DNA of 43,953 nt from UHGV virus genome UHGV-0199997; one strand, given 5' to 3'. The position numbers and the translations under genes were made by a program. The stretch comes from a virus. Positions 1-43,953 of this stretch are shown here, piece by piece (within the stretch, counting starts at the first letter, position 1; each line of letters opens with the position of its first letter). The notes under the pieces are model-generated. The model was not told where the DNA came from, did not search any database, and worked only from the letters and a program-made list of their open reading frames with translations.

Positions 1-417
1 ATGAAACTTTCTGATTTTTATTTCGAAGAGAAAGCACTGGTAGGCAAGAAGATGCCGATTACGCTGCCGAATGGTGAAGACTCAGGAGAGTGGCTTAACG
101 TTGTAAATACGGATGCGGATGCCGCCGTTAAAGCCGGGCGTGCTTTCATTATTGCGTACCGCCGTGGGTTGGCGCGTTTCGAAGAACTGGAAAAAGCCGC
201 CAAAGAAACCGGCGACTATACTGAATATAACCTGGCGGTTAACGAACTGGCGGAAGACCTCAACCGGCAACTCGCGGCAGAAGTCGTAAACGGCTGGAGC
301 TTTGACGAGCCATTCTCTAAGGAAGCGTTTAACAAATTGCTCGATCAGTTCAAAGCATTAGGCACACAGGTAGCGGCGTTTCATAACGCTGAACGTAAAG
401 CATTACAGGAAAAGTAG
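1..417 (+). CDS. tail assembly chaperone (gpG-like)
   Basis: 138-aa ORF directly upstream of the tape measure gene; acidic helical protein; the window end supplies an RBS (AAAGGA 43941-43946) if the sequence is circular. Confidence 0.55.
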   Translation: MKLSDFYFEEKALVGKKMPITLPNGEDSGEWLNVVNTDADAAVKAGRAFIIAYRRGLARFEELEKAAKETGDYTEYNLAVNELAEDLNRQLAAEVVNGWSFDEPFSKEAFNKLLDQFKALGTQVAAFHNAERKALQEK

Positions 418-3548: not shown

Positions 3549-4060
3549 GTCAGGAATCAGTAGAAGCCGCCTATCGCCGTAAGCTGGCTTCAAATCCCGA
3601 CGGCGAGATGGATTACATCACGTTGCAAATCAGCCACCCGTTGCTGTCAAAGACGTATTATCTTGTGCGCGGGCTGCAGGAACTTACGGCAACACTGGAG
3701 ACGGGCGAAACAATCACGTTCGAGCCGACCCCGATGGAAGCGTCGGGGGCCGCTAACAACAGCGATATGGACCAGACGACCACGTTTACTTTACCGGATA
3801 TCCTCAATCAACTGGATGATGAGATGGATAAAATCCCGATGAGTAATACTGAGTTGCCAAAGTTCGTATTCCGCCGTTACGTCAGCACCGACCTGTCTTA
3901 CCCGGCTGACGGCCCCGTCGTGTATGAGTTGCAGGCCATCAACCAGGAGAAAGGTGAGTTCTCTGCAGATGTTGGTACACCTATGCTGAACCAACGAAGC
4001 ACTGGTATACTGATGACACCTAAAGAGATACCGTTATTACGCGGCCTGTTGACCACATGA
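3545..4060 (+). CDS. minor tail protein L-like
   Basis: ATGA stop-start overlap with the upstream gene; N-terminal region resembles lambda gpL; synteny M-L-K. Confidence 0.55.
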   Translation: MSQESVEAAYRRKLASNPDGEMDYITLQISHPLLSKTYYLVRGLQELTATLETGETITFEPTPMEASGAANNSDMDQTTTFTLPDILNQLDDEMDKIPMSNTELPKFVFRRYVSTDLSYPADGPVVYELQAINQEKGEFSADVGTPMLNQRSTGILMTPKEIPLLRGLLTT

Positions 4061-4422
4061 ATATTAACGACTACACGGGCATACCTTACGACTTTCGCAA
4101 ACGCAATTGCTGGCATCACGTGCGCATTGTCCGCGCGGACGCCGGGTTAGACACCCCGGCGTTCGACGTCACAAGCCCTACGGCAATTAACGAAGCGTTT
4201 GACGAAGGTCATCGCAACACAAAGGGGCTTACGAAGATTGATAAGCCTGAAAACTTCTGTGCGGTGCTTATGGGGTATCGCCGTGGTGGTCGTATCGTGT
4301 GGCACGCAGGAGTTTACTTCGACGGGATGGTGAGTCATTGCGAGCTTGCATCCCGTCAGGTACGGCTTGACAGGCTGGCGGATCTCAGAGACACGTACAC
4401 GGAGATTGAATTTTGGCGATAA
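4057..4422 (+). CDS. tail assembly protein K-like, NlpC/P60-type peptidase domain
   Basis: ATGA overlap start; Cys in NCWHH and His in WHAGVYFDGMVSHCE are consistent with an NlpC/P60 catalytic pair as in the lambda gpK C-terminal domain. Confidence 0.55.
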   Translation: MNINDYTGIPYDFRKRNCWHHVRIVRADAGLDTPAFDVTSPTAINEAFDEGHRNTKGLTKIDKPENFCAVLMGYRRGGRIVWHAGVYFDGMVSHCELASRQVRLDRLADLRDTYTEIEFWR

Positions 4423-6968
4423 TCCTGCACTACACGCGAAACGCCGACGGCGCTTTCGACCGTACAAAACACGTCGGGATGCCGATGGAGTTTGTCGTTA
4501 ACCGTATTCCCGACGGCGTGCCTGCGCGAGTCTACCTCGGTGAGATTGGTGATGATACCGACGTAACCGACGACTTCGATGCGCTTAAAGACGAAGACGC
4601 GGTATACCACATTATTGAGGGTGCGGGTAGCGGGGCGCTTGGTGCCGTTAGTAAGGTGTTCGGTTTTATCCTTAAGCCAATCGCCAAGTTGTTCGGCCTG
4701 AACATGTCCGCTAACGCCAACTACACGGCGACTAACAATCAGACAACGTCACCGAACAACAGCCTTACCGACCGCTCAAACAAACCACGCCCTTACGAGC
4801 GCTCTTATGACATCTGCGGTACTGTGCAGACAATCCCTAACGACCTTATGCAGACGTATAAGGCGTTCAACTCAACTGGTGCTTTGCTGGAGTATTCGTA
4901 CTATGACGCGGGACGCGGGCATCTGCATATTGAGGCGGATGGCGTCACAGAAGGCGACACCCTTATAAGCGACATCACGGGTTCTTCTGTTGCCGTGTAC
5001 GCGCCGTATACTTCCCCGAACAACACCGCATCTCCCCAACTACAAATCGGCGACGTCATTGACCAGAAACTCTATGTGACATACTCCAACGACGACGTTG
5101 ACGGTATTGTACTGAAAGCACCAAACGACATCGGAGCTAACCCAAGCGCCGACGGCACCGCTAAACGTATTTCAAACACCGGCTACATTTATGACCCGTC
5201 AGGCGACTCTGCTTTTTCTGAGTTTCTTAGCGTCGGTGATGTCGCGGTGCTGAGCAACTTTGACGTTGCTGATGTCACTAACCTGAACGGCTCGTTTGAG
5301 GTTTTATACGTTGACGACTTCGAAGTAAGATTAGCCGTAAACGGTGCGTCTAACTGGACGGCGTTGACCAGCGGACAGACGTACACCCTAACAGAGCGTT
5401 CAGATACGTTTATTGGCCCGAGCAACACCTATGACGTATCCCTGACAGACTGGTATTACATGGTGCGCGGAGAGGTTGACCGTGTGCTCGCTAACGTAGC
5501 CGGGCAGAACGGCCTATACAAATACGACGGCGGCTATAACCGCACCAGCGTAACCGTAGAACTCCAGTACCAGATGATTGACTCTCAGCGCAACCCGTTG
5601 AGTGATATTTACACGGTACAGGCTACAATTACAGGCAACAATACGGATTACGTCGGTACGTCTATCTACGGACAGTTGCCGACAGCATCTCGTTTCCGCG
5701 CCCGTATGCGCCGTGTAACTAATTTTGACAAGGGCTACGACGGAACGGTAAGTGACGAGATAACCTTCATCAACCTGTACGGGCAGTCGCTGGACACAAC
5801 CCCACACTACGGCAACCGAACTACCGTGCATTGCGCACGTAAACAGACGCCGCGCGCCGCCAGTATCGACAACCCGGAACTACGCATGATTGCTACCGAG
5901 ATGTGCTACAAATACCTCGGCAATGGGGTGTTCGATACGGTAATGACTCCGAACACTCAGGCAGTGCAGTCGCTAATCCGACTGGCCCGAGACCCAGCGG
6001 TTGGTAATCTGAAACTGACAACGGTAAACATGGATAAGTTGCTTGCTGTGCAGGAAGAAATTGAGTCGTATTTCGGAAGTGAATTAGCGGGGCAATTCTG
6101 CTACACGTTCGACGACTACGACACCACGATGCAGGACATTGTTCAGACCATAGCGGAAGCCGTTTTCTGTACCGCATACCGTAAAGGCGCGGATATTATG
6201 TTGCGGTTTGACCGTCCGGTTGCGGGGCCTGAAATGGTGTTCACCCACCGCAGCAAAACTACCGGTACGGAGAAATGGACCCGCACGTTCAACGATTCTA
6301 CGACCTACGATAGCCTGTCGTTCTCGTACATCGACCCGGATACGAATGTACAGGAAACGATTTATATCCCGGAAGAACTCGGTGCAAATACGGAGGAGTA
6401 CGAATCGAAGGGCGTGCGCAACTACCAACAGGCATATTGGCTGGCGTGGCGTCGCTATCAGCGCAACACGTTAAGTAAAGTTGTCGTAGAGTTCGAAGCT
6501 ACGGAAGAAGGCGCTCTCGCTACCCCAGGCGGCGTAATTAGTGTAGTTAAAGGTTCACGTATTGCACCACAGGACGGCTATATTGTTGCCGTTAATGGGC
6601 TTACACTTACGTTATCCCAGCCTGTTACGTTTACTCCTGGCGATGACCACTCCATCATTCTTAAGAAGCGCGATGGCTCGGTGCAGAGTATCTCCGTTAT
6701 CAAAGGAAGCCACGACCGCGAAGTGATTATGCTCTCTGCGCCGGAGGAGGCAATCTACACAGGGAATAGTGCGCTAAAAACTGAGTTTTCATTCGGCAAC
6801 GAAGCAAGGCATAATGCTCAGAAGATAGTTGTTTCTTCAATCGACCCGGGCGACGACCGCACGGTCAAGATTACGGGCTACAACTATGATGACGGATTCT
6901 ATAAATACGACGGCGTCGCGCCATACGGCAGCGGTTTCTCCGACGGATTCAGCAATGGTTTTAATTAA
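4413..6968 (+). CDS. tail tip protein (gpI-like N-terminus fused to gpJ-like host-specificity region)
   Basis: 851-aa ORF; N-terminal ~100 aa (AVYHIIEGAGSGALGAVSKVFGFIL) resembles lambda gpI, the rest is a large beta-rich tip protein. The track start is TTG 4413; ATG 4476 or 4482 are alternatives. Confidence 0.6.
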   Translation: MAIILHYTRNADGAFDRTKHVGMPMEFVVNRIPDGVPARVYLGEIGDDTDVTDDFDALKDEDAVYHIIEGAGSGALGAVSKVFGFILKPIAKLFGLNMSANANYTATNNQTTSPNNSLTDRSNKPRPYERSYDICGTVQTIPNDLMQTYKAFNSTGALLEYSYYDAGRGHLHIEADGVTEGDTLISDITGSSVAVYAPYTSPNNTASPQLQIGDVIDQKLYVTYSNDDVDGIVLKAPNDIGANPSADGTAKRISNTGYIYDPSGDSAFSEFLSVGDVAVLSNFDVADVTNLNGSFEVLYVDDFEVRLAVNGASNWTALTSGQTYTLTERSDTFIGPSNTYDVSLTDWYYMVRGEVDRVLANVAGQNGLYKYDGGYNRTSVTVELQYQMIDSQRNPLSDIYTVQATITGNNTDYVGTSIYGQLPTASRFRARMRRVTNFDKGYDGTVSDEITFINLYGQSLDTTPHYGNRTTVHCARKQTPRAASIDNPELRMIATEMCYKYLGNGVFDTVMTPNTQAVQSLIRLARDPAVGNLKLTTVNMDKLLAVQEEIESYFGSELAGQFCYTFDDYDTTMQDIVQTIAEAVFCTAYRKGADIMLRFDRPVAGPEMVFTHRSKTTGTEKWTRTFNDSTTYDSLSFSYIDPDTNVQETIYIPEELGANTEEYESKGVRNYQQAYWLAWRRYQRNTLSKVVVEFEATEEGALATPGGVISVVKGSRIAPQDGYIVAVNGLTLTLSQPVTFTPGDDHSIILKKRDGSVQSISVIKGSHDREVIMLSAPEEAIYTGNSALKTEFSFGNEARHNAQKIVVSSIDPGDDRTVKITGYNYDDGFYKYDGVAPYGSGFSDGFSNGFN

Positions 6969-21573: not shown

Positions 21574-21623
21574 CTCGCTACCCTATTACACGAAAGAATC
21601 ACAACGGCAACGTAACTATTCTC

Positions 21624-21659
21624 TTGCACACCCCAATATAATAGGATACTATTCACTTA
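21624..21659 (+). promoter_or_regulatory. conserved promoter element (TTGCAC-N17-TACTATTCACTTA)
   Basis: One of at least five near-identical ~36-bp elements, each 25-40 bp upstream of an RBS and start codon; this one precedes the gene at 21687. Confidence 0.5.
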
Positions 21660-23150: not shown

Positions 23151-23186
23151 TTGCACGCTAAGATAGAATAGGCTACTATTCACTTA
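23151..23186 (+). promoter_or_regulatory. conserved promoter element (TTGCAC-N17-TACTATTCACTTA)
   Basis: Same element family as 21624-21659; precedes RBS GAGAGGAGAG and ATG 23211. Confidence 0.5.
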
Positions 23187-23210
23187 CACAAACGAGAGGA
23201 GAGACAGAAT

Positions 23211-31876: not shown

Positions 31877-31878
31877 GA

Positions 31879-31898
31879 AAGGCCCCGTGAGGGGCCTT
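31879..31898. terminator. bidirectional hairpin terminator
   Basis: AAGGCCCC-GTGA-GGGGCCTT stem-loop; U-rich flanks on both strands; separates the portal gene from a convergent minus-strand small gene. Confidence 0.6.
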
Positions 31899-31902
31899 AA
31901 AT

Positions 31903-32088
31903 TTAACAAGCTGATGTTGTCCAGTAATCACCATAATCATTTACGTAAAATTTCTTCATACCAGACCACCCGAAGTTCTTACATGTCTTTTTGAATCGCT
32001 TCATTACCTGTGTTCTTGTCAGCATCAAAACACTACCGTTTCCATCTCTTGCGAAATCTCCGCCGGACTTATATGGTTTCTTTTCCAC
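31903..32088 (-). CDS. small AT-rich moron protein (61 aa)
   Basis: Minus-strand ORF between portal and head-morphogenesis genes with its own upstream promoter element and downstream terminator; GTG start with RBS AGGGGG; clearly AT-richer than its flanks. Confidence 0.5.
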   Translation of the reverse strand: MEKKPYKSGGDFARDGNGSVLMLTRTQVMKRFKKTCKNFGWSGMKKFYVNDYGDYWTTSAC

Positions 32089-32109
32089 TTTTATGCCCCC
32101 TGTTTAAAT

Positions 32110-32145
32110 TAACCGAATAGTACCCTATTATATTGGTGTCTGCAA
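32110..32145 (-). promoter_or_regulatory. conserved promoter element (TTGCAG-N17-TACTATTC), minus orientation
   Basis: Member of the ~36-bp element family; drives the 61-aa minus-strand gene. Confidence 0.5.
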
Positions 32146-33697: not shown

Positions 33698-33727
33698 AAG
33701 GCCCCTTATGGGGCCTTAATTTTATTT
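33698..33727. terminator. bidirectional rho-independent terminator
   Basis: AAGGCCCC-TTAT-GGGGCCTT followed by AATTTTATTT; shared by the convergent genes 33233-33694 (+) and 33722-34243 (-). Confidence 0.65.
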
Positions 33728-34243
33728 AAATCGCGCTGGCATTAGCACCATAAATGCAGTGTTTGAAAATGATATTTTGCATCCTCTGATTTGGTCCTGG
33801 AAATCGAAACGAGCGATTTCATTTTTGTATGCCTTAGAAATCTTGTGCGCGTCCGCCAAGTAGCGCAGGGTGAACCCTATGCTGTCAACCGCCCCCGGCG
33901 TGATGTGCGCCACACGTCTCCAGTCAGGAAACCTTCCGTCTACAACATCTACCGGAAGTGTACATATAAGCGCACGACTATCGTCATAGAAAGAAACGCT
34001 GCTGTTGTCGTGGTCTACTTCCGCGTAGTTAAATTTAGAAGGCTCTCTCCCTTTGATGTCTATGAGAACCGCATTCTCAACGTTTGTCTTAACGTTGTCG
34101 CAGAACAATCTATGACCGTCCGTAGACACTATCAATCCCTCCGGGTCTATGTAAAAAGCATTCAAATAATAGCGCACATCATTTTTAGCTCTGCATATTT
34201 TTGCCCCTACATACGCAGGGAAAGTAATTACTGTAGTAGCCAT
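33722..34243 (-). CDS. DnaN (beta sliding clamp)-like mini-protein
   Basis: 173 aa; VSTDGHRLF matches the conserved DnaN TDGHRL motif and the C-terminus FMVLMPARF matches the DnaN YVVMPMRL tail; own promoter element upstream; RBS GAGGAGGAG. Confidence 0.55.
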   Translation of the reverse strand: MATTVITFPAYVGAKICRAKNDVRYYLNAFYIDPEGLIVSTDGHRLFCDNVKTNVENAVLIDIKGREPSKFNYAEVDHDNSSVSFYDDSRALICTLPVDVVDGRFPDWRRVAHITPGAVDSIGFTLRYLADAHKISKAYKNEIARFDFQDQIRGCKISFSNTAFMVLMPARFK

Positions 34244-34264
34244 TTTAACTCCTCCTCGTTTCGA

Positions 34265-34300
34265 TAACTGAATAGTACCCTATTATGTTGGGGTGTGCAA
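34265..34300 (-). promoter_or_regulatory. conserved promoter element (TTGCAC-N17-TACTATTCAGTTA), minus orientation
   Basis: Member of the element family; immediately upstream of the DnaN-like gene. Confidence 0.5.
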
Positions 34301-39776: not shown

Positions 39777-40189
39777 TGGGCTACTTTGAGGACTTAACCA
39801 AAGCGTTCGATGTGCCACTGGTAGCCTTCGGAACCACCAACGGCATCAAGGTCGCGCTTGAAAATATCGACGCGCCAACGTCAACCAATACCCCGTATCT
39901 GGCAAGTTACATGTTGCTGGCGGATACGGAACAGGCGGATTTGTTCTTCACGGAACAACGCGCCGGTGTTTATCAGGTAGACATTAACTACGCATCGGTG
40001 AAAGGTAGCGCGCCAATCAATAAAATGGCAGACTTACTTAACACGGCGTTTAAAGCAGGTAAGTCATTTTCGCGTAACGACATCTGCGCCGAGGTTCAAT
40101 CGGTTAGCCTGGGGCCGCTAATTGTAGAAAACGGATGGGCCAAACGACCATTGTCAATTAACTTTATTGCATTCACCAAGAGGCTGTGA
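39773..40189 (+). CDS. putative tail terminator / tail completion protein
   Basis: 138-aa ORF between the gp10-like and major tail genes; synteny. Confidence 0.45.
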   Translation: MMGYFEDLTKAFDVPLVAFGTTNGIKVALENIDAPTSTNTPYLASYMLLADTEQADLFFTEQRAGVYQVDINYASVKGSAPINKMADLLNTAFKAGKSFSRNDICAEVQSVSLGPLIVENGWAKRPLSINFIAFTKRL

Positions 40190-41358
40190 ATATGGCTACA
40201 ACTCCTTTTAAGGGCGCGACTACCGCGCAATTCTATGTGGCAGAAGTCACCCCGGGCGTAACACCGACTAACCCGGTATGGTCGCCGTTGCGTAACACAG
40301 GTGGCGTCCCCGCTATTACCCGCGACACGCTGACCTCCAACGAGCTGGACGGCAGCCGTGAAACTACGTCCATCCGCACCGGTAACAAGCAGATTAGCGG
40401 GGAATACGCTATTGAGCTTAGCTCGAAAAGCCAGGACGACTGGCTGGCGGGGGCTTTAGGCTCTACGTGGCAATCCGGTAGATCTCTGACAGGGCTATCA
40501 ATTACCGTCGCACCGGCGGGCAAGACGTTCACACGCGCCACTGGCAGCTTCATCACTGACGGCGTTGAAGTTGGCGACCTGATCGCGTTTACCGACTTAA
40601 CAGGCGATAACGCAAAACCATTTATTGTTACTGCAGTAACGGCTACGGTTGTTACTGGTGCAGGTATCCAACACACCCTGACCACCGAGACAAAAACCAG
40701 TAAGGCTAAAACTGGCGACACGCTGGAAACCGGCAACACGTGTAAGACGTTCTCTATCCTCACCTGGTACAAAGGCCAGTGCGGCGGTACTGACGCGTAC
40801 ACGTTAACCAAAGGCGTGGAAGTTTCTGGTTTTACCATCGAACAGGCTGTTAACGCAATGGTAACGGGCAGCTTCCCGTTCATCGGGCGCAGCCAGGAGA
40901 TTCTCGCGACGCCGCCGTCTGGTTCCGACTTCTCTTCCGTTACGTTTGGTGACGAGCCGTTCTCTTCGGTTGACGTTTCTGTGTTCGATGGGTCTACGCC
41001 GTTGCGTTGCGACAGCCTGACCATCACCAACGATAACAGCGCGTCTGCGCAGTTCGAACTCGGCAACACTAACGTAGCGTTTGTGGAACGTAGCCGCGCG
41101 GCTAACACCTTCTCCATCTCCGGTAAGCTGTACGACATGGCGATGATTCAGAAGTTTATCAACGAACAGCAGGTAGAGATTAACTCTATTCTGGCTGGGG
41201 TAAACGGGGCTATGTCCTTTAGTCTGAAACGTGCAGAACTTACAGCGGTTACACCAGAGATTGGCGGGCCTGAGTCAATCACTCAGTCTATTGAAGGCCA
41301 GGCTACGGGCAACCAGTACCAGTCGTCTATTGTTATCCAGCGTATCACCTACGCATAA
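40186..41358 (+). CDS. major tail protein
   Basis: 390-aa protein, last structural gene before the chaperone and tape measure (through the circular junction); followed by a very strong terminator. Confidence 0.6.
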   Translation: MNMATTPFKGATTAQFYVAEVTPGVTPTNPVWSPLRNTGGVPAITRDTLTSNELDGSRETTSIRTGNKQISGEYAIELSSKSQDDWLAGALGSTWQSGRSLTGLSITVAPAGKTFTRATGSFITDGVEVGDLIAFTDLTGDNAKPFIVTAVTATVVTGAGIQHTLTTETKTSKAKTGDTLETGNTCKTFSILTWYKGQCGGTDAYTLTKGVEVSGFTIEQAVNAMVTGSFPFIGRSQEILATPPSGSDFSSVTFGDEPFSSVDVSVFDGSTPLRCDSLTITNDNSASAQFELGNTNVAFVERSRAANTFSISGKLYDMAMIQKFINEQQVEINSILAGVNGAMSFSLKRAELTAVTPEIGGPESITQSIEGQATGNQYQSSIVIQRITYA

Positions 41359-41362
41359 AACT

Positions 41363-41388
41363 AAGGCCCCTTTCGGGGCCTTTTTCTT
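41363..41388. terminator. bidirectional rho-independent terminator
   Basis: AAGGCCCC-TTTC-GGGGCCTT followed by TTTTTCTT; U tracts on both strands; shared with the convergent minus-strand cassette. Confidence 0.75.
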
Positions 41389-41941
41389 ACAAACCTAATT
41401 TTAAAGCAATGTCTATAACGTTCGATTTAACGTCACCTGGTATGATGTAGGTGTCGTAATCTTTTACACCGCTAACATCATACAGATAACCACGGCTGTC
41501 CCCCTCAAACGTATAGCCGTCGCGATGGAGGCGAACGATTCGCACGTCATGACCCGCGGCGACGATAGGGGCTACTTCGCTGGCGAACCCGCCGTCGGAC
41601 ACTACAAAAACTTCGTCGCCGTCTGGCAAGTTTTCAGCAAGATACTTACCGAAATAATCACTACCAAGTACCGGTTTAATGAATTGCTCAGATATAGCAA
41701 TCATGAACTGACGCCGCGACAAGCCATTAAGGAAGCCTTCTGACTTTTCTTTCCGTGCCCGGTCGTCGTAGCCGTCGATAAACTCGTGGTAAGCATCCGG
41801 GCCTAATGCCGCCAGAGCGATATTGAACATTGGATTCTTGAAACTGGTGATTCCCTTCGCAAAGCCCATTTCTACCAGCGCCATAGCAAGTGTGTCTTTC
41901 CCGCAACCCGCCGGGCCATTAAGAATAATTACCTTAGCCAT
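41387..41941 (-). CDS. P-loop nucleotide/polynucleotide kinase (dNMP kinase / Pnk kinase-like)
   Basis: Walker A ILNGPAGCGKDT; the C-terminal pattern resembles T4 dNMP kinase; its start overlaps the stop of the HAD phosphatase gene. Confidence 0.6.
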   Translation of the reverse strand: MAKVIILNGPAGCGKDTLAMALVEMGFAKGITSFKNPMFNIALAALGPDAYHEFIDGYDDRARKEKSEGFLNGLSRRQFMIAISEQFIKPVLGSDYFGKYLAENLPDGDEVFVVSDGGFASEVAPIVAAGHDVRIVRLHRDGYTFEGDSRGYLYDVSGVKDYDTYIIPGDVKSNVIDIALKLGL

Positions 41942-42429
41942 TATTTATCGCTCCCGTGTGGTTTTAAGTGTGTAGAGTTCCCGTTACAGTCGTATTCAGT
42001 AACCGCGTGAGTGGTTATACCGAGTCCGCGGAAATGCTTTATTACCGCGGGAGAGTCGTCGAATGCGCACAAGATTCTTTCCAGCCCGATAGCACGTAAC
42101 ACCTCTTCTTTAATTACGATGTCTTTTCTGTTGTCGTGTTTGCTGCGCATTATCAGCGTGTCAAACTTAACGTTATTTTCTCGCAACCATTTACGAGTCC
42201 CATCCTCAGCGTCGTCGCTTCGACCGGTAAGGATGATTACGGTCATCCCGGTATGCCACAGCGTGTTGCACAAGTGAATGTTGTCATATATCGGCGCATC
42301 ATCTTTGCACGCCATGTTAAATGGCCTCCAAGCCCATGTTTCGCCGTAGTTATCTTTCGGCAGCAGGTGCAAACGATGTGTACCATCTGCTAATGTCCCG
42401 TCTAAATCGAAAATTACAATATCTTTCAT
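41941..42429 (-). CDS. HAD-family phosphatase resembling the T4 polynucleotide kinase 3'-phosphatase domain
   Basis: HAD motif I FDLDGTL, motif II ILTGR, and the segments DNRKDIVIKEEV and FDDSPAVIKHF align with recalled T4 Pnk phosphatase-domain motifs. Confidence 0.7.
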   Translation of the reverse strand: MKDIVIFDLDGTLADGTHRLHLLPKDNYGETWAWRPFNMACKDDAPIYDNIHLCNTLWHTGMTVIILTGRSDDAEDGTRKWLRENNVKFDTLIMRSKHDNRKDIVIKEEVLRAIGLERILCAFDDSPAVIKHFRGLGITTHAVTEYDCNGNSTHLKPHGSDK

Positions 42430-43556
42430 CCCAGCATCTCCGGTGAAATAGTTAAACGCGCAACCTCGCCATATTCGGCGCTATATGTAATTACGTTTGC
42501 ACTGCGGCCTGACATCCATCCGCCGCGAGAGGCGTAGGCGTCTTTAGCCGCCAGGGTGCGGTGTTGCTCGACAATCATGTTACGACTTTCTACAATCTTC
42601 TGGTGGTGCAGGTGGCCCACGTGAGCGTAGCTGTAAACACTCTCGCCGAACGCTTTACGGAACTTGGCAATCATAACAGGTTCGATAGCGTCGAATCGCG
42701 CCTTATGGCCGTGATGAAAGAACAGAGTCGTTTTGCCGTGTCGCACCATCTTGTAAACATCCGGCGACGTATCGACGAACACACGCGGCTCGTTGTCGTA
42801 CAGCGTGCTAAACATCTCAGCCAACCAAATCATTCCGCTTTCGTCGTGGTTCCCTTGCACGATAAGCAAGCGAACATTTTTATGCTTAACAAGGGCCATA
42901 TCAACAACACGGCGGACCATACGAATCATGTAGCGGACAAGTTTCTGATAACGGGTGTCAGCATCAAGAACATTACCACTCGCCGGTGTAACGGCAACCA
43001 GACTATCGAAGTGCGCAAGGTCCCCAAGCAGGTTAATAACCCCTGTTCCCGCATCCGGTGCTTTCTGAAACGCGGCATCGAACCAGCGGGAGAACAGGTC
43101 TTCTGCAATCTTCATATCCCAGTCGTCGCCGCTTTCATCGGCCCAGGCCAGCATACCGAGATGGAAATCAGATACCGTGTAAAGATTGAGTAGTTTATCG
43201 TCGCGTTTAGCCCGAACGGCTTTAACAGGAGCAACGGGGGTAATCTCCGACTTCATCCCTTCGATTACGGCTTTCATCAACTCTACCTGACGTTCGGCAT
43301 CGGTGTCGGTCTTAACCCATTGCAGCTTAGTGTTGCCGAACTCGTCCACCAGTGACGACGTGCCTTTAATCTTGTAGCCGTCTGGTACAAGATGACTGAC
43401 GTCGCGGCCGTGCCCTACGCCTTTCTTAGCCAGCTTCGCTTTACGGATACGAATAACGCGATCTGAGATGCCATATTTACGGGCTATATCGATATTCCTC
43501 AATCCGGCGTTCAATTCTTCCTGTAACTGTTCGTCGGTTATTTTCTTCCGGGCCAT
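42426..43556 (-). CDS. HTH domain fused to a calcineurin-like metallophosphoesterase
   Basis: N-terminal HTH (NIDIARKYGISDRVIRIRKAKL); phosphoesterase motifs DFHLG, GDLAHFD, GNHDE, HHGH, GHLHH. Confidence 0.65.
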   Translation of the reverse strand: MARKKITDEQLQEELNAGLRNIDIARKYGISDRVIRIRKAKLAKKGVGHGRDVSHLVPDGYKIKGTSSLVDEFGNTKLQWVKTDTDAERQVELMKAVIEGMKSEITPVAPVKAVRAKRDDKLLNLYTVSDFHLGMLAWADESGDDWDMKIAEDLFSRWFDAAFQKAPDAGTGVINLLGDLAHFDSLVAVTPASGNVLDADTRYQKLVRYMIRMVRRVVDMALVKHKNVRLLIVQGNHDESGMIWLAEMFSTLYDNEPRVFVDTSPDVYKMVRHGKTTLFFHHGHKARFDAIEPVMIAKFRKAFGESVYSYAHVGHLHHQKIVESRNMIVEQHRTLAAKDAYASRGGWMSGRSANVITYSAEYGEVARLTISPEMLG

Positions 43557-43594
43557 GCTTACGTCCTCGTGTTTAGGATTTGTCCTATACTAGC

Positions 43595-43786
43595 TCACTT
43601 CTCGTTAACATTCGAGTTGCACGCCCAGATTAAAATAAACACCCACGGCAGCAGAACCCATCCGAGAAACAGGTTAGCCATGAATATCGCTAACTTCGCT
43701 TTATGGTTACGGAAGTATGCAACCAGGAAAGGTGCGAAATAGGCGAGCAGTGCAAACAGAATTAAGGAAACTGGTAAACTTGACAT
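43595..43786 (-). CDS. superinfection-immunity-like small membrane protein
   Basis: YFAPFLVAYFRNHKAKLAIFMANLFLGWVLLPWVFILIW matches the recalled Imm-type pattern (YF.P.IIAF.R.H...AIF.LNL.LGWT..GW..ALIW); ATG 43786 with RBS GAAGGGG; first gene of the minus-strand cassette. Confidence 0.55.
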   Translation of the reverse strand: MSSLPVSLILFALLAYFAPFLVAYFRNHKAKLAIFMANLFLGWVLLPWVFILIWACNSNVNEK

Positions 43787-43809
43787 TTTAAACCCCTTCA
43801 TTGTTGGTG

Positions 43810-43845
43810 TAAGTGAATAGTACCCTATTATATTGGGGCGCGCAA
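43810..43845 (-). promoter_or_regulatory. conserved promoter element (TTGCGC-N17-TACTATTCACTTA), minus orientation
   Basis: Member of the element family; drives the four-gene minus-strand cassette. Confidence 0.5.
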
Positions 43846-43953
43846 GTAGTGTGCTAGAATAAGTTTGCGCCTAGTGTCGCACACGAAAAGCGGGTGGTTC
43901 CCGTCTGGCGCATTTATCGTTAACCTGTAACCTCTTAACCAAAGGATTAAAGA

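Follow-up and report, generated by a model that had tools for sequence, protein, structure and literature searches.

A conserved antisense cassette of Imm, metallophosphoesterase, HAD phosphatase and kinase genes between the tail-tube and tail chaperone genes of a Kagunavirus-like siphophage

Genes and transcription signals of the cassette

The viral genome UHGV-0199997 was analysed over its full length of 43,953 bp (hereafter the window), which corresponds to the complete genome of a Kagunavirus-like E. coli siphophage (Guernseyvirinae) with its circle opened. This report concerns a cassette of four minus-strand open reading frames (ORFs; 43801-41387), which encodes, in the direction of transcription, an Imm-family membrane protein, a fusion of a helix-turn-helix (HTH) with a metallophosphoesterase (MPE), a HAD phosphatase and a P-loop kinase (Table 1). 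Since the tail assembly chaperone gene lies at the start of the window and the major tail gene near its end, the sequence represents a circularly opened genome in which the cassette is located between these two genes. An earlier note on this sequence had described the four genes in precisely this position across the circular junction, and all of them were recovered there.

The cassette is a genuine and conserved antisense operon whose enzymes are already annotated in hundreds of related phages. Using positions 41300-43953 as query, 330 phage records were matched, the top match being Escherichia phage EM1 (91.8% identity, 100% query cover), followed by K1G, K1ind1-3, RP180 and other Kagunavirus genomes at 89-91%. 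The gene order of EM1 is identical, with the tail protein followed by kinase, HAD, MPE and Imm on the opposite strand and then by the chaperone. The same four genes occupy the same slot, in the same order and on the same strand, in EM1, K1G, K1ind1-3, RP180 and ST20, and the annotated Kagunavirus cassettes are 89-92% identical at the nucleotide level over the whole 2.65 kb. With no more than 91.8% identity to the closest GenBank phage, the window represents a separate lineage, and its cassette belongs to a known and widely annotated module. The current analysis demonstrates the gene structure, the family memberships, the integrity of the active-site motifs, the sharing of the promoter, the synteny and the purifying selection.

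Table 1. Coordinates of the cassette, its flanking genes and the related transcription signals in the window
Feature	Position	Strand	Evidence or remarks
Tail assembly chaperone gene	1-417	+	phrog_15027, 1.8e-69; starts at window position 1
Weaker promoter variants	15820, 17917, 17961	+	
Promoter sister copy	21622-21657	+	Head of small-gene (early-type) region
Promoter sister copy	23162-23187	+	Inside small-gene region
Promoter sister copy	32109-32140	-	Heads antisense island with 61-aa ORF 32088-31903
Promoter sister copy	34269-34300	-	Heads antisense island with 173-aa ORF 34243-33722, phrog_3007
Major tail/tail-tube gene	40186-41358	+	phrog_290, 9.8e-80
Predicted hairpin terminator	41363-41382	both	AAGGCCCC-TTTC-GGGGCCTT, GC-rich
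P-loop (GKD) nucleotide kinase, T4 gp1 dNMP-kinase family, 184 aa	41387-41941	-	phrog_139, 1.5e-44
Standalone HAD phosphatase, T4-Pnkp phosphatase family (phrog_415 subfamily), 162 aa	41941-42429	-	PF25109
HTH-MPE fusion, 376 aa	42426-43556	-	Domain and fold evidence
Imm-family small membrane protein	43595-43801	-	PF14373 Imm_superinfect, 68-aa ORF
Cassette promoter element	43806-43845	-	Conserved core repeated at least five times in the window

The three enzyme genes are probably translationally coupled, since neighbouring genes overlap, MPE with HAD by 4 nt (ATGA) and HAD with kinase by 1 nt (TAATG). The GC content of the cassette presents no anomaly. Regarding the first gene, the true start is probably the second in-frame ATG (43786), which would yield a protein of 63 aa, because an AAGGGG Shine-Dalgarno sequence falls within the opening codons of the longer ORF and because this start is the one annotated in EM1; the first ATG itself overlaps this Shine-Dalgarno sequence.

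The claim that the cassette possesses its own conserved promoter element was borne out, as at least five copies of its core (TTGCrCrCCCCAAyATAATAGGGTACTATTCA) are present in the genome. Its geometry is that of a TTGCGC hexamer (TTGCrC across copies), a 17-nt spacer and TACTAT, with a perfect TATAAT within the spacer; the full 36-mer is unique in the window and zero 36-mer matches would be expected by chance. The three minus-strand copies each head one island within the late structural operon, while the plus-strand copies are associated with a small-gene region that corresponds by synteny to EM1 gp1-gp11. Because the same promoter heads this early-type region, it is a reasonable inference that the cassette is probably transcribed early by the host RNA polymerase. 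The element contains two overlapping -10 candidates (the TATAAT in the spacer and TACTAT), and its conserved block runs approximately 12 nt beyond TACTAT, which suggests a regulatory or 5'-untranslated-region role.

At the other end of the cassette, the proposed bidirectional terminator was called on both strands, with folding energies of -15.4 and -19.3 kcal/mol on the two strands and a U-tract that is good on the plus strand and weaker on the minus strand. The hairpin is separated by 4 nt from the stop codon of the tail gene and, on its other side, likewise by 4 nt from that of the converging kinase gene, and is predicted to be the common terminator of the tail-gene and cassette transcripts.

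Families of the four proteins

Profile- and structure-based homology searches of the three enzymes upheld the affinity that the earlier note had proposed between the HAD protein and the Pnkp family, but led from the kinase to T4 gp1 and from the MPE to DNA nucleases. Searches of NCBIfam with the four cassette proteins returned no informative match.

The HAD protein does resemble the 3'-phosphatase domain of T4 Pnk. It matches PF25109 (HAD_PNKP) at 5.8e-20, above the gathering threshold, its best PDB sequence matches are Pnkp1 (4xrp) and T4 Pnk (1ltq/5uj0), and BLASTP aligns it with residues 162-300 of T4 Pnkp at 3e-9. Its residues D8, D10, R19, R70, D103, D124 and D125 align with D165, D167, R176, R213, D254, D277 and D278 of T4 Pnkp, which we take from published mutagenesis to be the essential residues of that enzyme, and all seven are invariant in 29 homologues. 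The protein consequently possesses the DxDxT 3'-phosphatase domain of T4 Pnkp-type enzymes with every catalytic residue kept. It differs from T4 Pnkp (PseT) in that the HAD is unfused, HAD and kinase being separate genes instead of parts of one polypeptide, in that the neighbouring kinase is not Pnk-like and in that there is no Rnl partner; moreover, it belongs to phrog_415, a standalone subfamily distinct from the phrog_505 of T4 Pnkp. A standalone homologue (43% identity, 2e-35) is encoded by Krischvirus ECD7, where the gene (3998-4474) overlaps the nrdB stop codon and adjoins denA, and its similarity to T4 Pnkp is undetectable by BLASTP. ECD7 also encodes a complete pseT and rnlA, and phrog_415 therefore coexists with a true end-healing system, in a setting of genes for deoxynucleoside triphosphate (dNTP) synthesis and host-DNA degradation.

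The identification of the last gene product as a P-loop kinase was correct and can be refined to the deoxynucleoside monophosphate (dNMP) kinase type (phrog_139, 1DEK). No Pfam family was matched above threshold. T4 gp1, whose dNMP-kinase activity is as recorded in the annotation of the T4 record, matches the same region of phrog_139 at 1.8e-65, whereas T4 Pnkp gives no match to it, and the cassette kinase in turn matches neither phrog_505 nor phrog_2071. A profile built from 41 kinase homologues aligned with gp1 over 173 columns (hhalign, E 1.3e-5), in contrast to 28 columns, all at the P-loop, for T4 Pnkp. The AlphaFold2 model of the kinase (pLDDT 95.2) had 1DEK, the T4 dNMP kinase, as its top PDB match in Foldseek (E 7.9e-5, query-normalised TM-score 0.65), followed by phosphomevalonate kinase and adenylate kinases, and T4 Pnk (1LTQ) was absent from the top 50 fold matches. 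Polynucleotide kinases carry a general-base Asp after strand 2; in the cassette kinase an invariant lysine, K35, follows this strand and no invariant Asp is found there; the P-loop has the GKD sequence of gp1 instead of GKS/T. The GxxxxGK[ST] P-loop, the Asp after strand 2 and the Pnk-like fold of polynucleotide 5'-kinases are thus missing, and the full-length profile similarity, GKD P-loop and fold of the gp1 type are present. These comparisons place the kinase with the T4 gp1 dNMP kinase and not with the polynucleotide kinases, although, judged by sequence and model, it is only approximately 18% identical to gp1, is shorter (184 versus 241 aa) and is devoid of the long insertion of gp1. Sequence-only PDB searches with the kinase, employing either the single sequence or the profile, retrieved AAA+ ATPase P-loop matches only. 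A role as a 5-hydroxymethyldeoxyuridine DNA kinase in thymidine hypermodification was also considered and rejected, since the annotation of EM1, the closest genome, contains neither a hydroxymethylase nor a thymidylate-synthase homologue.

The second protein is an HTH-MPE fusion, as had been proposed, with a three-helix HTH at residues 8-44, a linker composed of a beta-hairpin and a helix at 61-104 and a binuclear MPE domain at 119-376. The five MPE motifs (DxH, GD, GNH(D/E), H and GHxH) are invariant across 40 diverse homologues; the Pfam Metallophos models match below threshold only, and the fold was confirmed by structure search. The nearest folds are the DNA nucleases PolD DP1, SbcD and Mre11, with lambda-phosphatase-like enzymes far lower; the best Foldseek matches also include the cyclic-nucleotide phosphodiesterase Rv0805. 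PDB sequence searches returned zero significant matches, and sequence similarity to Mre11 was insignificant. Clostridium thermocellum Pnkp (CthPnkp; kinase - MPE phosphatase - ligase) likewise combines a P-loop kinase with a binuclear MPE, and the cassette MPE had been proposed to represent such a phosphatase module; this was contradicted by its nearest folds, as it does not belong to the lambda-phosphatase-like clade that the CthPnkp-type module requires. Neither is it a canonical Mre11/SbcD protein, as the N-terminal HTH stands in place of the C-terminal capping domain, and no Rad50/SbcC-like ATPase partner is annotated in EM1. Judged from its nearest folds, the MPE looks like a putative DNA-directed nuclease or phosphodiesterase.

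Across 16 Kagunavirus loci the MPE displays 91.1% nucleotide versus 97.6% amino acid identity, compared to 90.3% and 95.7% for the tail-tube protein. It is under the strongest purifying selection among the genes compared and is more constrained than the tail-tube protein, a degree of constraint not usually expected of a gene whose antisense cassette looks accessory. An identical MPE protein is present in metagenomic contigs of approximately 44 kb.

Phage MPEs with the same five motifs are also found in Cluster A mycobacteriophages (A10ZJ24 gp48, Bxb1 gp47), where they are early proteins of approximately 255 aa without an N-terminal HTH, in contrast to the 376-aa HTH-bearing cassette protein. 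Bxb1 gp47 and L5 gp54 are needed for phage DNA replication. The gp48 MPE breaks down DNA in vitro and the DNA of its host in vivo, and its deletion blocks phage DNA replication in Mycobacterium tuberculosis (PMC12287305). Homology of the cassette MPE to gp48 and Bxb1 gp47 was rejected, the resemblance being at the motif level only (hhalign probability 8%), and these proteins serve as a functional precedent only.

The superinfection-immunity-like membrane protein proposed for the first gene was substantiated by a match to PF14373 at 9.3e-13 (48.3 bits versus a gathering cut-off of 27.9) and to phrog_1039 at 1e-22. Two hydrophobic segments, at residues ~9-29 and ~38-60, provide the two-transmembrane topology of this family. 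T4 Imm (PF14373) is likewise small with two hydrophobic helices; unlike T4 Imm, the cassette protein leads an enzyme operon.

Distribution and modularity of the cassette genes

Homologues of the cassette enzymes are abundant, as tblastn matched 2,055 phage records with the MPE, 2,137 with the HAD and 1,534 with the kinase. Synteny was assessed in 80 IMG/VR loci retrieved with the kinase profile. The HAD gene is located upstream of the kinase on the same strand in 54 of these, spread over several phage lineages, and 24 of the 54 carry a contiguous MPE-HAD-kinase arrangement, including lineages with only 45-49% kinase identity (loci L057, L059-L062, L067, L069 and L070). No HAD-kinase fusion was observed among the 54 paired loci, and in the remaining 26 loci the kinase occurs without the HAD. 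One such kinase-only locus, in the T7-like Marinomonas phage CPP1m, is a class II DNA-metabolism block comprising an exonuclease, endonuclease VII, a different MPE (phrog_221), the kinase and a DNA ligase. T7 itself has a nucleotide kinase near its ligase. The position of the CPP1m kinase between MPE and ligase may be read either way, as nucleotide supply or as end healing.

The trio is also found in Drexlerviridae, with the same PHROG families (704, 415 and 139) in the Webervirus-like Klebsiella phage phi1_146036 and in T1 (ST16, ST64 and ST62). There it is located in the replication/lysis region, on the main strand and without Imm, as opposed to the antisense, Imm-bearing cassette described here. 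In phi1_146036 the three genes adjoin one another in the order of the cassette, with replication genes on one side and lysis genes on the other, while in T1 the HAD (ST64), an HNH gene and the kinase (ST62) lie in the early region and the MPE (ST16) approximately 35 kb away. Jerseyviruses retain Imm and MPE in the tail-gene slot without HAD or kinase, which are replaced by a small ORF plus a gene for a Roi-like DNA-binding protein, in some cases with an HNH gene in addition, and Dhillonvirus SECphi4 carries the MPE alone, upstream of terS. Because Jerseyvirus and Dhillonvirus keep the MPE but neither of the other enzymes, and T1 has it at a distance from them, the cassette is modular, with the MPE as a core gene of Guernseyvirinae, T1-like Drexlerviridae and Dhillonvirus, and with HAD and kinase as a separable accessory pair.

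The description of the cassette as inserted holds relative to T1, in which the major tail and chaperone genes abut with nothing between them, but not in the sense of a recent event, as the cassette is a fixed feature of the genus that is under purifying selection. Recent horizontal insertion as a moron was rejected in view of the unremarkable GC content, the purifying selection on all four genes across the genus and the sharing of the promoter elsewhere in the genome. HNH homing-endonuclease genes recur beside cassette genes, namely between HAD and kinase in T1 (5465-5959) and after the MPE in the Jerseyvirus Salmonella phage vB_SenS_TUMS_E15 (5171-5671). Furthermore, the 41300-43953 query had a best match of at least 99% identity in 39 phage records, none of them among the full-length matches; this implies that short near-identical pieces are shared with more distant, mostly Salmonella phages, possibly through mosaic exchange in the cassette.

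Predicted function of the cassette and further observations in the genome

In our estimation the chances are about even that the cassette constitutes an early DNA-processing and dNTP-supply module accompanied by a superinfection-exclusion gene, as opposed to a module of RNA end healing. It would be a composite Kagunavirus accessory operon, opposite in direction to the late tail genes and expressed early under a promoter of host type, in which the Imm-family membrane protein probably excludes superinfecting phages. The HTH-tethered binuclear MPE would act on DNA as a nuclease or phosphodiesterase, with either the host chromosome or replication/recombination intermediates as its target. The Pnkp-family 3'-phosphatase would strip blocking 3'-phosphates off DNA ends or off (deoxy)nucleotide breakdown products, following which the gp1-type kinase would convert 5'-dNMPs to deoxynucleoside diphosphates for phage DNA synthesis. 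In this scheme we infer the timing of expression, the substrates, the cooperation of the MPE with the HAD-kinase pair and the degradation of host DNA.

A function in nucleotide supply is suggested because the kinase is gp1-like by PHROG, profile, fold and P-loop, because it occurs without the HAD in the 26 loci mentioned above, such as the DNA-metabolism block of CPP1m, and because the HAD subfamily sits with nrdB and denA in ECD7 beside a full pseT and rnlA. Nucleotide salvage, which the earlier note had offered as an alternative, would therefore fit better than end healing. For the MPE, a DNA nuclease activity is suggested by the intact catalytic motifs, the N-terminal HTH, the strongest purifying selection and the mycobacteriophage precedent, while early DNA processing is indicated by a promoter that also heads early-type regions and another DNA-metabolism island. 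A 2026 survey of Drexlerviridae found genes labelled 'polynucleotide kinase' and 'dNMP kinase' most often after one labelled 'DNA repair exonuclease', and proposed that such genes extend the replication module and boost nucleotide supply (PMC13164509).

Several points weigh against this interpretation. The kinase resembles gp1 only distantly (18% identity, hhalign probability 81%), and the literature yielded no assay of any member of the three phage enzyme subfamilies. The HAD family is typified by a polynucleotide end-healing enzyme, and the conserved HAD-then-kinase pair is also what would be expected of a split Pnkp. As the MPE is found without the pair in Jerseyvirus and Dhillonvirus and far from it in T1, the three enzymes may not act jointly; degradation of host DNA by Kagunaviruses is itself a supposition, and Mre11-type nucleases leave 3'-OH ends, which would render a 3'-phosphatase needless. 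The persistent coupling of 3'-phosphatase and dNMP kinase is the main point that the DNA-processing and dNTP-supply reading leaves unexplained.

The end-healing module envisaged in the earlier note would be a split Pnkp, in which broken RNA or DNA is relieved of its 3'-phosphates by the HAD and phosphorylated at its 5'-OH ends by the kinase, while the MPE may open 2',3'-cyclic phosphates; a ligase of the host would then close the break, and the action of host nucleases would be countered. The HAD, a true Pnkp-family phosphatase, speaks for it, as do the TAATG overlap with the kinase gene, the recurrence of this gene order across lineages and the CPP1m kinase flanked by an MPE and a DNA ligase; P-loop kinases, in addition, change substrate easily. 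Nevertheless, the kinase groups with gp1, carries an invariant K35 where the general-base Asp of Pnk would be expected and is never fused to the HAD; the MPE is nuclease-like rather than lambda-phosphatase- or CthPnkp-like; and ECD7 maintains this HAD subfamily, placed with nrdB, on top of a full Pnkp and Rnl1. The absence of a ligase that had been remarked upon was confirmed, in that tblastn of the window with T4 Rnl1 and a phage ATP-dependent DNA ligase gave nothing below E 0.19 (Rnl2-type and NAD-dependent ligases were not queried directly), and none is annotated in EM1; nor does the window contain tRNA genes, and the trio is not obligate. End healing of the Pnkp type is thus partly supported, by its phosphatase; two of its defining features are contradicted, as the kinase does not resemble Pnk and the MPE does not resemble a Pnkp phosphatase, a ligase is also lacking, and we regard end healing as improbable. 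It is likewise unlikely, in our judgement, that the enzymes share no pathway at all, the MPE being a replication/recombination factor for phage DNA and the HAD and kinase independent add-ons on the same transcript. The status of the MPE as a strongly constrained core gene, which stands alone beside terS in Dhillonvirus, without the pair in Jerseyvirus and remote from it in T1, would accord with such independence, and so would the replication block caused by deletion of mycobacteriophage gp48; the contiguous MPE-HAD-kinase order shared by at least two lineages distant from each other, that of Kagunavirus and that of Webervirus-like phages, the ATGA overlap of the MPE and HAD genes in the window and the fact that the link to Bxb1 gp47 is confined to motifs argue against it.

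An anti-defence role had also been proposed, and found no direct support, with zero PADLOC matches for the four cassette proteins. One conceivable form is anti-signalling, in which the MPE would act as a cyclic-nucleotide phosphodiesterase, as its Foldseek match to Rv0805 might suggest, and the HAD and kinase would clear dNMP alarms such as N6-methyl-deoxyadenosine monophosphate (m6dAMP). According to two recent preprints, host systems in which an MPE is paired with a HAD (Metis and PUA-Cal-HAD) detect m6dAMP that is set free when phages cause genome degradation, and in Metis the HAD phosphatase MisB removes basal m6dAMP. The cassette HAD belongs to PF25109 and not to the MisB-type PF13419, and the literature examined holds no experimental link; anti-signalling is accordingly considered very unlikely. 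The preprints inspire, but do not support, the more particular notion of a counter-sensing device, in which HAD and kinase, possibly together with the HTH-MPE, would act during host-DNA breakdown by the phage and rapidly convert or destroy products such as m6dAMP and 3'-phosphorylated nucleotides, which serve systems like Metis and PUA-Cal-HAD as alarms. Such a device seems to us a distinctly long shot; if it existed, it would explain the coupling of 3'-phosphatase and dNMP kinase in thousands of small lytic siphophages.

As a genome feature the cassette is an ordinary, fixed and annotated part of Kagunavirus genomes, and the open interest is functional, residing in the coupling of a Pnkp-family 3'-phosphatase with a gp1-type dNMP kinase and in the HTH-MPE core gene. 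Kagunaviruses are small, easily engineered therapy phages, and knowledge of the role of the module would inform genome minimisation and host-range prediction, as well as amend the labels 'polynucleotide kinase' and 'DNA repair exonuclease', which are misleading and have been spread by annotation pipelines. Literature on the Kagunavirus phage CM001 provided no essentiality data, the BASEL paper reports Kagunavirus phenotypes and nothing on the cassette genes, and in the retron Eco2 paper polynucleotide kinase appears as a reagent only.

The window contains two further antisense units. The smaller (31878-32140, minus strand) is located between the portal and head-morphogenesis genes and consists of the ribosome-binding site cagggggc, a GTG-start 61-aa ORF with zero PHROG matches and a closing GGCCCC-TCAC-GGGGCC hairpin at 31879-31898. 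The other (33722-34300, minus strand) lies in the head-gene region, and its 173-aa ORF matches phrog_3007 ('RusA-like resolvase', 3.5e-37); EM1 has a Dam-type methylase gene in the equivalent slot, which indicates that the cargo of this slot is variable. Finally, the two halves of the phrog_15027 chaperone family are found on separate plus-strand ORFs (1-417 and 516-782) with a gap of 98 nt, unlike the usual overlapping G/GT frameshift layout, and the EM1 annotation agrees with this arrangement.

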